IMG/VR virus record: IMGVR_UViG_2718218139_000010
Span: 1-35,239 of that record
Origin: a virus
Lineage: Duplodnaviria; Heunggongvirae; Uroviricota; Caudoviricetes
DNA length: 35,239 nt
Reading direction: 5' to 3' (one strand)
Positions 27,001-33,000 of the stretch are shown piece by piece. Positions within the stretch are counted from its first letter, which is position 1. Each line of letters starts with the position of its first letter. Made by a program: the position numbers.

Positions 27001-30000
27001 CAAAGCTAAACCATTGCCAAACAGTCTGTTGAGAGCCCCCCATATAACGACCTATTTCAGCTTGAGTGTATTTCTGCCTAATTTTTTTGCGAGTGCTATC
27101 TAGCATTTTGCCCTCCTCTAAAAAACTATAAGCAAAGCCTACAATAAAAAACTGTACACAATCAACAGTTTTTTATTGTGATGCTTTTAACAGTATTTAC
27201 CTGTAAAATTGAATAATGATGAACGCCCTAGAAGTATCTATGTACAGAATCAGCAAGCTTCTTCAGGAAACTGGATGGAGCCAGGCTGAGCTTGCCCGTA
27301 GAATTGGTGTGACACAACAAACTGTTCAACAATGGGTCAGCGGTAAGGCTACACCTAAAGCCTCAAGTTTGGATAAACTGGTTGAGGTTACAGGGCATCC
27401 ATTGCATTGGTTTTTATTGCCTCCTGAAGAGGGGGAGCAAATTTTCACCCCTGACACGATGAAAATTGGTCCTCGTCAACGCGAACTGCTCCAGGTTTTT
27501 AGTGCGTTTCCAGAGGAAGACCAAGAAAAAATGCTTCAAGAAATCAAAGACAAGAAAAAATCAATGGAAGAAACCATTGCCCGGTGGTTGGCGGCACAAA
27601 AAAGCCGCCGGGCGTGACCACTGTACAAGAAGAGGAGTTATGTCATGAGTACAGCCCTTTCTCCGATAGTTTCAGAATTCGAAACTACCGAACAAGAAAA
27701 CAGTTACAACGAATGGTTGCGCGCTAAAGTGGCGTCAAGCCTTGCAGACCCTCGTCCCTCAATTCCACATGACGAGGTAATGGCTGAAATGGAGAATCTT
27801 ATTGCTCAAATTGCTGTAACTAACAGGAGCGAGTAATGTTACCCATTTTATGGCTACCATCTGCTCGCGATGATTTGCGTCAGATTGTAGCCTATATTGC
27901 TAAGGAAAATATTCCTGCAGCACGCAGACTAAAAATACGTATTGAAACGTCTGTTTTAGCCCTCTCCGAGCATCCATATCTATATCCGCCAAGTGATCGA
28001 GTATCCGGTTTGCGGGAAATTGTGGTTCACCCTAATTATATCGTTTTGTACCGAGTAGCAGCTTCAAGCATTGAAATTGCAAATATTGTGCATGCCCGCC
28101 GACAATTTCCCTTCCCTATCTGAACTGAACAATTTTCATACTCCCTCATTCGAGGGAGTTTTTTTTTGCTCAACACAACAATTAAAAACTGTTGACATAA
28201 AACAGTTTTTAATTGTAGATTATTTCCACCACCCCACCCCGCCCCGCAGAATGCAGGGCAATACTTCGAGTTACCCGGCAGTGGTCAGGGGTTAAGTAGC
28301 CAGCCCGAGGCGTAAGAACATGACGGCAGGGTTCAACTTTAACTATGCAGCAGGTTTTTGTTCCGCTACCCCGGCGTTAAGGGGAAATGAGGTCAGCATG
28401 GATACTATCGAGCTTGGCAACAACGAATCTCTGGTATACGGCGTGTTTCCCAACCAGGACGGCACGTTCACCGCGATGACGTATACCAAAAGCAAAACGT
28501 TTAAAACCGCAGCTGGCGCGCATCGCTGGTTAGCAAGAAACACTGACTGATGAGGTTGACGATGGAATTTAAAGATTTACCTCCTTCAATCCAGGAGATT
28601 GCAGCACACACACTTCGTCATCGTCTGAACGAACTTGAATTGGAATCGGTAACAAAAAAAGACACTGATAATATGGCTCGTAATGTGCGCGATGCGTTTA
28701 CTGGGCTGTTTTCAGATACAGCTTTAAATATCCATGGCACAGAGGATACAGCAAAACAATTTGCAGAAAAAGAAGTGGAAGATCTCAGTTCAAAGAGCCA
28801 GAAACAGCTAAACAACCATGAAATTAACGAACTGCTTCTGGCAACAGGCTTCATAAATATTAACGAATATGACCGCCGTAAAAAAATGTTATCTGATCAA
28901 TCCATCAAGATATCTTTTTAGCATCAGCGTTTCTACGTTATTAAAACCATCAGATTTTAACATAGCTTCGATTCGCTGATTTAAATTGCCAACTAACTGT
29001 TGATACTGAGTAGATGGAAGCATGTGTACCAGCTCTTTGAGAACACAATAACATGCACCAAGTTTTAACTCCTGCTCTGACATTTTATCCTCCATTGAGG
29101 TTACTGGTTGAGAATGGAGACCTCTCGTGACAGCGTGTGGTCGTGCGCCGGACACGGATAAGAATCCGGCACTGACAGTTTACTGAAAGGATATATCCCT
29201 GAAAAGTCAGGGCATAACACGAAAGTGCACGGCGAGATTCCTTTGCATATAAGGCTTGTCGTTAAATTTCTTCGACCGTGCACTTCCGGTTGTGGCAATC
29301 CGCGAAATGGCGCGGCGGTAAGTATGGCTGGGGCTTCCTCCATTGCTCCAGAAAATGCGCCGGGTTGTCAGGTTGACCATACGCTTAAGTGACAGCCCCG
29401 CCACAATACCCATGTGTAGTCTTTGGTGGCATCAGTTCGACTCCGTGACTGCTCTGCCACCCTTTTTAAAGTGAATTTTGTGATGCGGTGAATGCGGCTA
29501 TGCGCACGCGGAACAGTTAAATCCGTAACGTGGTCTTTTACGGGGCATAACGGGCATACCTCTGTATTCCGGCGTTAATTGTTAACTGGTTAACGTCACC
29601 TGGAGGCACCAGGCACTGCATCACAAAATTCATTGTTGAGGACGCGATAATGGAAACGTTATTACAGAACGTTAATACGTCTGAAGGGTGTTTTGATATT
29701 GGTGTTCTGCTCAGTAACCGGGAGTTTACTGAAGATGCCATTAAAATGCGGAAATATGAACCTTATCTTCTCAATGATAATTCCATACTTTCCCGAATTG
29801 CCCTTCTTAAACTTGGTATTTTCGGGGGGCAGCAGTGACTTCTGCATTTGCACTGGTAATGACTGTTTTTCTTATAACGGGTGAGCCACAGAATGTGATT
29901 ACCGGAATTTATGCCAGTAAAGAATCATGCCTCCGGGCAAGAGACGAGCAAAAAATTTCTGGCGAATGCCTCCCGTTAAAAAAAGTATCGCTGTACCTGA

Positions 30001-33000
30001 ATAACGAAATACCGGCTGGATAATCCACCAGCCATATTAACGCCATACCCGTTGATTAAGCATGCCAGCAATGGCAGGGGTTCGTACAACCTTAAAATAG
30101 TTATGAGGTTTATCAATGAGCACCGATAAAGAAGAATTTGCGCTATATTGCGAAGCTAAAAATGACAAAGTCAGAAAACGCCTTGGGATTAAAGGGGGTT
30201 TTTACTGGACTACAGCAAAAAAATTATCTGTTGCCATCTCACGGTGCGTTGTTGCAATGGACGAGGCAGGCTACGACGCTGATGATTTCAAAAAACCCGT
30301 CCGCGTCCATTTCCCCGTTGTGAATGACCTTCCACCGGAAGGCGTGTTTGATACTGAATTCTGCAACCGCTATGAAAAAGGCGGGGAAGATGGCATCACA
30401 ATGATATTTATAGCGCCTTCCCCCTCAGTTCAGGACAAACCAGCCAGCACTGACAATACCAACGTCAATGGCGAAGACATGGCTGAGATTGAGGATAATA
30501 TGCTCCTGCCGATTTCCGGTCAGGAACTGCCCATTCGCTGGCTTGCGCAACATGACAGCGAAAAACCGGTAACGCACGTTTCACGGGAAGAACTTCAGGC
30601 ATTACATATCGCACGAGCTGAAGAACTGCCGGCTGTTACTGCCCTGGCTATTTCCCACAACACAAAGCTGCTCGACCCGCTGGAGATTCGCGACCTTCAC
30701 AAACTGGTACGCGACACTGACAAAGTTTTCCCTAATCCCGTTAATTCCAGTCTGGGGTTCATGACTGCTTTTTTCAAAGCATACCTGGACACTGACTATA
30801 CCGATCGAGGTCTGCTGACAAAAGAGTGGATGAAAGGAAATCGTGTTTCTCGCATCACCCGCACGGCTTCCGGTGCAAATGCCGGTGGCGGAAATAAAAC
30901 CGATCGTAATCCTGACTTAGTACACACCCTCGATACTCTGGATGTGGAGGCTGCAGCAGCCACGCTTCCGATGGATTTTAATATTTATGAAATTCCCGGG
31001 AGCGTTTATCGTCGCGCAAAAGAAATCGTCCTGAAAAAAGAAAGTCCGTTCAGGGAATGGTCCGCAGCACTTCGCGCAACCCCTGGTATCCTGGACTATT
31101 CCCGCGCAGCTATTTTTGCACTTATCCGAAGCGCCCACCCTGAGTTTTATCACTACCCGGGACGCCTTCAGGGGTATATCAATGCCAACCTGACAGAAAC
31201 TGATCACGAGAATCCCACAGCTGAAACGCTCATGGCTGCCCGGCATACACCGGAAAAAGATATCCTGGAAGAAATTAACGGCGGACTGGCTGCTGAGTGC
31301 AAAACAGAAGAAGAAAAAAATGATGAAGAAAACCCGCAACCATCTGGCGCAATGGCAGATGAACAGGCAACGGCTGAAACAATGGCAGCGGATACAGTTG
31401 AACATCATCAGGACCCGCAGCCGCAGGATGACAAGTCACAGGTAAAAGTTACCGCTGAAGAAGTAAATAAAATTATGCAGGCAGCCAATATCAGCCAGCC
31501 TGACGCCGATAAGTTGCTTGCTGCATCACGTGGTGAATTTGTTGCAGGGATTAGCGATCCGAATGATCCGAAATGGGTGAAGGGGATTGAAACCCGCGAT
31601 TCTGTGAACCAGAACCAGCAAGAAACGGAACAGAACGACCAGAAAGCGGAACAAAACAGCCCAAATACGCAACAAAACGAGCCAGAAACGAAACAACCTG
31701 AACCAGTAGTGCAACAGGAACCGGAAAAGATCTGCACCGCTTGCGGTCAGAGCGGTGGCGGCAACTGCCCTGATTGTAGTGCGGTGATGGGCGACGCAAC
31801 ATACCAGGAAACATTCGATGACAAGAACCAGGTTGAAGTTCAGGAAGACGATTCGGAGAAAATGGAAGGCGCTGAACATCCACACAAGGAGAATGCTGGC
31901 AGCGCTCAGGACCACGCCAGCGATAGTGAAACTGGCGAGACGGCAGATCCCTTAATTACGGTGAACGGTCATCACGTTATCACATCCACCAGCAGGACGT
32001 GTGACCATCTAATGATCGACCTTGAAACCATGGGAAAAAATCCTGATGCCCCGATTATCTCAATAGGTGCAATATTTTTCGATCCGCAAACCGGAGATAT
32101 GGGACCGGAATTTAGTAAGACTATCGATCTGGAAACTGCTGGCGGAGTCATTGATCGAAACACCATTAAATGGTGGCTGAAGCAATCACGTGAAGCGCAG
32201 TCTGCCATTATGACTGATGAAATCCCGTTAGATGATGCACTGTTACAATTGCGGGAATTTATCGACGAAAACTCCGGTGAATTTTTTGTTAGGGTCTGGG
32301 GAAATGGGGCCAACTTCGACAACACGATTTTGCGCCGTTCATACGAACGGCAGGGGATCCCATGCCCATGGCGTTACTACAACGATCGCGATGTACGCAC
32401 AATCGTTGAGCTGGGGAAAGCCATAGACTTCGATGCCAGAACGGCTATTCCATTCGAAGGTGAGCGCCATAATGCACTTGATGACGCCCGTTACCAGGCA
32501 AAATACGTTTCAGCAATCTGGCAAAAACTGATCCCGAATCAGGCTGATTTTTAATGTTCAACCGTCGCCAGTTGTCGTTGGTATTCTGCAACTGGCGCGT
32601 TCCGGAGTGATAGCCATGAGCGAACAGTACCTGATAACGCTCGACGAGTGGAAACCAAAACGGTTCAGTCTCCCAATAACAAACACTACCCTGGTGAAAT
32701 ACGGAAAACTAGGATACATCGTTCCAAGGCCACAAAAAATTCGTGGGCGTTGGCTGATAGATCGCCGAGCAGTATTTGTTGGACCTGGTGAAACGGGAAT
32801 TGCGCCGGAAATTCTGAGGTAGCCTGAGTTTAACGGACACTCCTTCCTGAAATAGAATGGCATCAGAAGGAGCTAATAATGAGCAGAAAAACCCAACGTT
32901 ACTCTAAAGAGTTCAAAGCCGAAGCTGTCAGAACGGTTCTTGAAAATCAACTTTCGATCAGTGAAGGCGCTTCCCGATTATCTCTTCCTGAAGGCACTTT

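Follow-up and report, generated by a model that had tools for sequence, protein, structure and literature searches.

Does a prophage copy of dicF, dicB and ydfD, genes of lambdoid prophages that have been studied since about 1990, carry the same division-inhibiting functions as the copy known from Escherichia coli K-12? This question is raised by a 35,239-nucleotide (nt) stretch of DNA from a virus of the Caudoviricetes (IMG/VR record IMGVR_UViG_2718218139_000010, positions 1 to 35,239), which was analysed at its full length and is referred to as the window in the following. A first-pass annotation had read three elements out of it, namely a Qin-type DicF small RNA (sRNA) with its terminator hairpin, a DicB homologue and a YdfD-like open reading frame (ORF), and had combined them into a complete module directed against FtsZ and MinC, accompanied by a lysis-associated small protein and placed under a PL-like promoter. 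Our analysis leaves us highly confident that the region, taken as a whole, is an early-left operon of the dicBF type, belonging to a lambdoid prophage that is defective and carries type III effector genes. The DicF that it encodes belongs to a minority allele, for which the pairing with the ftsZ messenger RNA (mRNA) is predicted to be weakened.

Identity of the module and of its DicF allele

The three elements of the module are located as follows.

29411..29467, plus strand: DicF sRNA, class B allele (see below), in which the 5' single-stranded part CAUGUGUAGUCUUU is followed by a hairpin (29425-29461) and a U5 tail
29650..29838, plus strand: dicB, 62 amino acids (aa), Pfam PF05358, NCBIfam NF049927
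29835..30023, plus strand: ydfD-family gene (DUF1482), 62 aa, whose GTG start overlaps the dicB stop

An Rfam scan of the whole window returned a match to RF00039 (DicF) at 29411-29462 on the plus strand, which covers the model from end to end (1-52 of 52) and, with 55.9 bits and an E value of 8e-10, lies above the gathering score of 48 bits. The DicF-like RNA with a terminator hairpin, as proposed in the first-pass annotation, is thereby borne out: it folds into a two-step hairpin followed by UUUUU (minimum free energy (MFE) -17.9 kcal/mol, z score -2.65), and across 13 distinct alleles 99.4% of the cells of this hairpin are paired, including one covarying pair that changes from C-G to U-A. 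The gene sits 183 nt upstream of dicB within the dicB operon. The 19 nt of the loop and 3' core, ACUCCGUGACUGCUCUGCC, are invariant in the window, in K-12 and in seven species-level genome hits, and nearly so in 65 viral contigs. K-12 DicF reaches 76.7 bits with the same model and another copy of the window-type allele 61.1 bits, and the alignment to K-12 dicF revealed near-identical flanks on both sides, but an RNA that itself differs.

The DicB ORF matches PF05358 over its entire length (1-62 of 62, E value 2e-35, 120.7 bits with a cutoff of 27) and NF049927 with 108.9 bits (cutoff 100). Its identity amounts to 60% with K-12 DicB and to 92% with the copy of UPEC69. The following ORF matches PF07358 (DUF1482; E value 6.6e-16, 58.4 bits with a cutoff of 25) and PHROG 1092 (E value 4e-33) and shares 47-48% identity with K-12 YdfD; aligned to its K-12 and UPEC69 counterparts, it retains the hydrophobic N-terminus MTSAFALVMTVFLITG, and neither Cys32 nor Cys45 varies. 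The proposed coupling of both genes through GTGA can be read directly from cagcaGTGActt, in which the GTG start of ydfD overlaps the TGA stop of dicB, and the same 4-nt overlap is present in K-12 Qin. From these results we conclude that the matches to dicF, dicB and ydfD are not due to chance and that both proteins had been named correctly. DicB is known to bind MinC, to take it to midcell via ZipA and to block Z rings, and it also blocks ManYZ-dependent phage DNA entry (PMC6832061), while inhibition of IspG by K-12 YdfD leads to lysis (PMC8835842). Going by its 60% identity and this published mechanism, the DicB of the window would be expected to target MinC, and by homology its YdfD may likewise cause lysis through inhibition of IspG.

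In order to distinguish the two forms of DicF, we use the label class B, coined here, for the allele of the window type and class A for the canonical one. Compared to K-12 and to the UPEC copy in the alignment, the first about 12 nt of class B are replaced (CAUGUGUAGUC against UUUCUGGUGACG), and the 14 nt directly upstream of DicF are deleted, including the A/U-rich segment around the 5' end that RNase E generates in K-12, unlike the flanks, which are near-identical. Within the outer stem, C-G is exchanged for U-A on both sides (GGCGG/CCGCC to GGUGG/CCACC), which is a compensatory change, and an additional change converts U.G into C-G; two bases of the loop differ, which reads UUCG in the window and UUUU in K-12. 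Class B agrees with class A (RF00039) in hairpin architecture, 19-nt core, U tail and genomic slot, whereas the xylR-pairing 5' region of the latter is replaced and the predicted complementarity to ftsZ is weaker. Judged from the alignments, class B is a naturally seed-replaced, hairpin-compensated minority allele of DicF.

Its minority status is seen in the distribution of both forms. Of 5426 complete E. coli genomes, 214 contain matches to a 111-nt class B query, at 224 places in all (154 at an identity of at least 99%), and 3974 contain the equivalent K-12 dicF segment, at 7041 places, so that class B accounts for about 3% of the copies. The module as such is an ordinary, known prophage cassette, with the canonical dicF region occurring in about three quarters of the complete E. 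coli genomes. The 111-nt segment of the window is 100% identical in E. coli strain 2013C-3033, and the best full-length match to 28300-30200 among the complete E. coli genomes reaches 92.5%. A scan of genome contigs with a degenerate DicF core pattern gave seven loci, all of class A and from Escherichia, Shigella or probable contaminant metagenome-assembled genomes, which were too few for a survey of diversity; therefore, we used DicB-linked IMG/VR loci. DicF cores are present in 65 contigs of this kind, about 14 of them class B and about 51 class A; two are stem hybrids. UUCU is the loop sequence in most of the IMG/VR class B copies, and slight variation is seen among the class B 5' ends (positions 5, 8 and 11).

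Among the RefSeq E. coli matches listed, neither the canonical nor the class B dicF segments coincide with an annotated feature, K-12 MG1655 being the exception, and dicF thus appears to be left unannotated in genomes processed with the Prokaryotic Genome Annotation Pipeline (PGAP). We found no description of the class B allele in the searchable literature, in a search that did not reach all key dicF papers.

Predicted pairing of class B DicF with K-12 targets

DicF of K-12 uses its 3' region to pair with the ribosome binding site of ftsZ as well as with pykA and manX, and its 5' end to pair with xylR; these pairings were validated or supported by mutations in dicF, including compensatory target mutations for ftsZ, xylR and pykA (PMC5069750, PMC5861419). 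For the comparison of both alleles, whole-length duplexes of DicF and its targets turned out to be inflated and to span the entire molecule, and were replaced by cofolding, region-limited duplexes and estimates of opening energies. The pairing energies below refer to region-limited duplexes with K-12 target sequences, and the K-12 ftsZ leader may differ from that of the host of this prophage.

xylR, DicF 5' part: K-12 -15.8 kcal/mol (0.7% of shuffled sequences as good), window -5.8 kcal/mol (68%); pairing lost
pykA, DicF 3' part: K-12 -26.4 kcal/mol, window -24.3 kcal/mol; pairing kept
manX, DicF 3' part: K-12 -37.1 kcal/mol, window -32.5 kcal/mol; pairing kept
ftsZ, DicF 3' part: K-12 -27.9 kcal/mol (4 of 500 shuffled sequences as good), window -19.4 kcal/mol (127 of 500); pairing weakened

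The predicted pairing with xylR is lost because the 5' end of DicF, about 12 nt, is replaced. For ftsZ, three substitutions in the 3' part of the window DicF all fall within helices of the K-12 DicF-ftsZ duplex model. As a consequence the window allele is predicted to form weaker AGUUUU:GAAACU and CCGCC:GGCG helices in this duplex, and to keep the Shine-Dalgarno helix CUCCG:CGGAG and the upstream CUG/CUC helix, with a total of 18 predicted pairs. The common class B allele reaches -21.3 kcal/mol on ftsZ, and after a crude correction for opening costs the net energies amount to -5.7 kcal/mol for K-12, +4.1 kcal/mol for the window and +0.8 kcal/mol for the common class B allele. The description of the locus as a complete FtsZ-targeting module is therefore overstated: DicF, DicB and YdfD are indeed all full length, but the ftsZ hybrid loses strength to an extent that shuffled sequences frequently match. 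FtsZ targeting by this DicF, as expected from homology, would thus be weaker on the DicF arm than had been assumed, and on the modelled energies we consider the chances that the window DicF still represses ftsZ to be about evenly balanced.

These results imply that DicF is not one sequence, since about 3% of its copies have a different 5' pairing region and a weakened predicted ftsZ duplex. Conclusions drawn from DicF of K-12 and enterohaemorrhagic E. coli (EHEC), i.e. the repression of ftsZ and xylR and the activation of pchA, should not be transferred untested to every prophage copy.

As a possible new target for the 5' end of class B, none of the 19 translation initiation regions in the window was convincing. 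One candidate considered was the start region of the gene for the Q antiterminator (19609-19630, minus strand), with 11 predicted pairs over the Shine-Dalgarno sequence and the AUG (-14.9 kcal/mol, 3 of 200 shuffled sequences as good). It was dropped, since such a result is about what chance would produce in 38 tests; in addition, of 15 viral contigs in which a member of this Q family is encoded within 10 kb of a DicF, 14 carry class A and one carries class B. Independently of this, the Q gene is likely to start at the ATG at 19620 and not at the GTG at 19626.

Layout, proposed control and putative processing of the operon

The elements which precede the operon and may control it are the following.

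26834-27106, minus strand: cro-like gene
27141..27179, between the cro-like and repressor genes: OR-like operator palindrome consisting of ACAATAAAAAACTGT, a 9-nt spacer and ACAGTTTTTTATTGT
27216..27617, plus strand: prophage repressor with HTH_3 domain, PaaR2/CI/DicA analogue, co-directional with the dicF operon
27645-27836 and 27836-28123, plus strand: PaaA2 antitoxin and ParE toxin, a moron at the position of lambda rexAB
28140..28168, plus strand: intrinsic terminator ending the transcript of the repressor and the toxin-antitoxin (TA) pair, 8-bp stem with 5 GC pairs, then T9
28178-28216: OL-like palindrome of 39 bp, overlapping the PL-like promoter, 16-nt arms, 100% complementary
28192-28221, plus strand: PL-like promoter, -35 TTGACA at 28192-28197, 18-nt spacer, -10 TAGATT at 28216-28221, 10 of 12 consensus positions

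Exactly four copies of the 15-nt half-site ACAATWAAAAACTGT are present in the 35-kb window, arranged as the two palindromes at 27141-27179 and 28178-28216, and four matches were reached by none of 100 shuffled sequences. The operators of OL and OR type share their half-site, which supports a PL-like control of the module, and the assignment to an early-left operon under a PL-like promoter holds: TTGACA and TAGATT lie with their 18-nt spacing at a palindrome whose half-site recurs only in the intergenic stretch separating the cro-like and repressor genes. The repressor (Pfam HTH_3, E value 1.7e-13, plus a Phage_CI_repr match) is 27% identical to K-12 DicA, which controls dicBp in K-12 (PMC10448788), and the product of 27216-27617 presumably represses the operon. 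Pfam matches identify the TA pair (PaaA2, E value 1e-21; ParE_toxin, E value 6.6e-16), and genes for a YdaS-like Cro analogue and a YdaT-like CII analogue are divergent from the repressor. The three-gene unit of repressor, PaaA2 and ParE (27216-28123, plus strand) fills the position of cI-rexAB, as it does in CP-933P of O157:H7.

The remaining parts of the operon and its RNA are arranged around the module as listed here.

28398..28550, plus strand: ydfA homologue (DUF1391), with which the operon begins; its open frame reaches upstream to 28320
28550..28921, plus strand: ORF of 119-123 aa, function unassigned, PHROG 2151 (E value 8.5e-54)
28889..29083, minus strand: 64-aa ORF, PHROG 4987 (E value 3e-49, full length), GGAGG Shine-Dalgarno sequence, antisense within the PL operon
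29220-29232 and 29276-29288, plus strand: arms of a leader stem, 13 nt, 92% complementary, candidate RNase III site for the 5' end of a long precursor
29472-29490 and 29614-29632, plus strand: arms of a dicF-dicB long-range stem, 19 nt, 95% complementary, candidate RNase III site
30116..32554, plus strand: exonuclease, 812 aa, with an Exonuc_VIII N-terminal region and an Rv2179c-like 3'-5' exonuclease domain

The first gene is 88% identical to K-12 YdfA (Pfam DUF1391, E value 2.4e-27). A tblastn search gave no match to K-12 YdfB or YdfC in the window, and the ORF at 28550-28921 is not homologous to either of them; a dicC homologue was not found in the window either. The 64-aa ORF on the minus strand, annotated as WP_001295058.1 in UPEC69, overlaps the 3' end of the upstream plus-strand ORF by 33 nt. 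Strain 2013C-3033 has another minus-strand gene of 148 aa at the same spot (locus L015, 3136-3582), and since different minus-strand genes occupy this position, it seems to be an insertion site for morons. The exonuclease (PF06630, E value 2.5e-34; PF16473, E value 1e-66) is annotated as such in related genomes and represents the intact counterpart of the K-12 ydfE pseudogene; it is followed by a xis-like ORF (32607-32822) and the integrase.

The stretch of about 490 nt before dicF contains no convincing plus-strand ORF, and about 280 nt upstream of dicF as well as the 180-nt dicF-dicB spacer are highly similar to K-12 Qin. Compared to K-12, the leader stem shows a compensatory change (GCGC/GCGC to GTGC/GCAC) and folds with -26.5 kcal/mol (z score -2.7). 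Its position matches the mapped 5' end of an RNase III-dependent precursor of 190 nt in K-12, which starts about 137 nt upstream of dicF (PMC10448788). The long-range stem encloses the dicF-dicB spacer, with its 3' arm ending right before the Shine-Dalgarno sequence of dicB, is present in both the MFE and the centroid structure of 29340-29665 (z score -4.1) and is nearly invariant in sequence compared to K-12 and UPEC69. It fits the alternative 3' end of a 72-nt DicF, which results from an RNase III cut in K-12 (PMC9438474).

The order from ydfA to dicF, followed by dicB, ydfD, exonuclease, xis and int, is common to K-12 Qin, UPEC69, 2013C-3033 and phage vB_EcoS-640R1. In comparison to the dicBF operon of K-12 Qin (ydfABC-dicF-dicB-ydfDE under dicBp, repressed by DicA), the window shares the gene order and the dicB/ydfD overlap, a DicF hairpin with U tail located about 180 nt before dicB, conserved leader and dicF-dicB stems, and an operon that lies downstream of the repressor gene and is co-directional with it. 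In contrast to Qin, it has a PaaR2/YdaS/YdaT type of immunity, PaaA2-ParE between repressor and promoter, the minus-strand 64-aa gene in the place of ydfC, a DicB and a YdfD of 60% and 48% identity, an exonuclease gene that is intact where K-12 has a pseudogene, and a class B DicF with its GGUGG/CCACC stem, UUCG loop and 14-nt deletion. The term Qin-type is thus only partly justified: ydfA, dicF, dicB and ydfD are in common, but homologues of ydfB, ydfC and dicC are missing, the repressor is distant from DicA and the 5' pairing region of DicF is replaced.

With respect to gene layout, the control region resembles CP-933P/Sp12 of O157:H7 (PaaR2-PaaA2-ParE2, YdaS, YdaT, PL933P), in which PaaR2, YdaS and YdaT are described as functional counterparts of CI, Cro and CII, and for which a repressible promoter, PL933P, was demonstrated (PMC8630535). 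In both cases repressor, PaaA2 and ParE form one leftward unit, the YdaS-like and YdaT-like genes are divergent, and a second promoter with operators beyond the TA pair drives the left operon. The two differ in that the ORFs past PL933P were given no function by the authors (PMC8630535), whereas the operon of the window carries dicF, dicB and ydfD, and in that three OL sites are annotated in CP-933P, in contrast to one long palindrome with 15-nt arms, detected once per site, in the window.

Proposed mechanism, alternatives and prophage setting

A mechanism consistent with these findings would start in the lysogen, where the operon would be kept silent by the repressor encoded at 27216-27617, bound to the OL-like palindrome that overlaps the promoter at 28192-28221. 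Upon derepression, a single transcript would run through ydfA, the ORF at 28550-28921 and the leader of about 490 nt into dicF, where part of the transcription would stop at the hairpin and U5 tail. Cleavage of the leader stem by RNase III and a cut by RNase E nearer to the hairpin could then release a short sRNA of the Hfq type, and the read-through RNA, with the dicF-dicB stem as a second putative RNase III site, would provide dicB and, coupled to it in translation, ydfD. By analogy to K-12, DicB would bring MinC to midcell through ZipA and block Z rings and ManYZ-dependent phage DNA entry, and YdfD would inhibit IspG and lyse cells when abundant. The class B core is predicted to still pair with pykA and manX and to cover the ftsZ Shine-Dalgarno sequence with a weaker duplex, and not to pair with xylR.

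Several points weigh against this proposal. The ftsZ duplex of the window allele is no better than that of 25% of shuffled sequences, and it was computed on the K-12 leader, which may not be that of the host. The convergent gene at 28889-29083 and the untranslated leader of about 490 nt could lower the transcription that reaches dicF, and the RNase E site of K-12, UCAAU/UUUCUGG (cut at the slash), falls in the segment that is deleted or replaced in class B. Moreover, the experimentally studied proteins share no more than 60% (DicB) and 48% (YdfD) identity with those of the window, the prophage is defective, with insertion sequence (IS) insertions and a truncated terminase, and we infer the expression and processing of the locus as well as all of its interactions with targets and partners.

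Among the alternatives, the one that overlaps most with our reading assumes that class B DicF is retargeted, i.e. that it no longer represses ftsZ, keeps pykA and manX and uses its new 5' end on other mRNAs, with the division block left to DicB alone. The replacement and deletion between near-identical flanks, the loss of xylR pairing next to kept pairing with pykA and manX, the position of all three 3' substitutions in ftsZ helices with the resulting drop in duplex and net energy, and the maintenance of the allele in 214 genomes with a compensated hairpin are all in line with this scenario. However, the CUCCG:CGGAG and CUG/CUC helices are intact and 18 predicted pairs with ftsZ are more than many sRNAs manage with, and three out of three changes at paired positions are unremarkable given that 21 of 32 nt are paired. 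The 19 initiation regions offered no convincing target for the 5' end, and its variation among copies at positions 5, 8 and 11 argues against a strongly selected new seed. We therefore regard retargeting as possible, though not as the reading that we would favour. Slightly less probable is the extended notion that class B is a seed-swapped allele arisen by recombination or deletion, with its ftsZ pairing eroded and its hairpin mended by a compensatory change, that class A and class B prophages rewire host metabolism and division differently, and that the copy in the window acts on a so far undescribed set of host or virulence mRNAs.

If DicF had no role in trans, its hairpin could represent a mere cis element, serving as attenuator or terminator and as processing site that sets the dose of dicB and ydfD. 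This would fit with the hairpin and U tract being best conserved and the 5' single-stranded part being replaced and variable among copies, and also with the large share of K-12 transcripts that end at the DicF terminator (PMC10448788), but the near-complete invariance of the 19-nt core, from the window and K-12 through the seven genome hits to the 65 viral contigs, exceeds what a terminator needs and affects exactly those nucleotides which pair with ftsZ, pykA and manX in K-12. A cis-only function consequently seems improbable to us. We give even less credit to the idea of a decaying remnant, a silent relic in a defective prophage that contributes nothing to its host. The IS3-family copies at 13331 and 32805, the second abutting the xis-like ORF, the IS66 transposase and the short terminase fragment would agree with decay, but the three genes of the module are full length when compared to family models, the promoter and both operator palindromes are intact, the changes in the RNA stems are compensatory and not disruptive, and K-12 expresses comparable cryptic genes of Qin, which are active there.

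The operon is embedded in a prophage with the following further elements.

1-987, minus strand: NleC-type zinc protease that degrades NF-kB p65, Peptidase_M85 (E value 8e-113)
1241-3613, minus strand: NleL/SopA-like HECT-type E3 ligase with pentapeptide repeats
17840-17901, plus strand: AgvB (anti-GcvB sponge), Rfam 91.7 bits, near-identical to the family consensus
17902-18095, minus strand: STnc100, Rfam 143.1 bits

Both genes for type III effectors, located at the prophage's far end, suggest that the host is probably an attaching-and-effacing Escherichia, and with nleC and an nleL-like gene the prophage represents the kind of setting in which dose and specificity of DicF have been connected to the regulation of virulence. 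The exact mosaic of this prophage was absent from the complete E. coli genomes searched. The two IS3-family copies (13331 to about 14561 and 32805 to about 34035), whose ORFs encode 100 and 272 aa, show 99% identity across the 300 nt that were compared, and the second one abuts the 3' end of the xis-like ORF just before the integrase. An IS66-family transposase is encoded at 6692-8305, and of the terminase only a short ATPase fragment is present (9123-10127). From the IS copies and this fragment, the prophage looks defective.

AgvB and STnc100 lie next to each other shortly downstream of the gene for the Q antiterminator (18931-19626, minus strand). A direct repeat of 300 nt with 91% identity (4923-5222 and 20656-20955) is spaced 15.7 kb apart, with one copy inside the region of a DUF968 gene, which suggests that two related phage genomes left remnants here or that an internal duplication took place.

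A DicF core was not detected in some of the viral contigs that encode a near-identical dicB. In two of them (loci L019, 1690-1878, and L061, 1686-1874), IsrK and a C4-type antisense RNA were found above the gathering score upstream of dicB, and L019 additionally showed a weak match to a diverged DicF-like RNA (36.4 bits). Seven further DicF-less loci (L022, L023, L050, L057, L060, L071 and L079; about 2316-2533) have a sub-threshold STnc100-like match of 31-34 bits, which ends at the start of dicB. The region upstream of dicB may thus be a slot in which sRNAs can be swapped.

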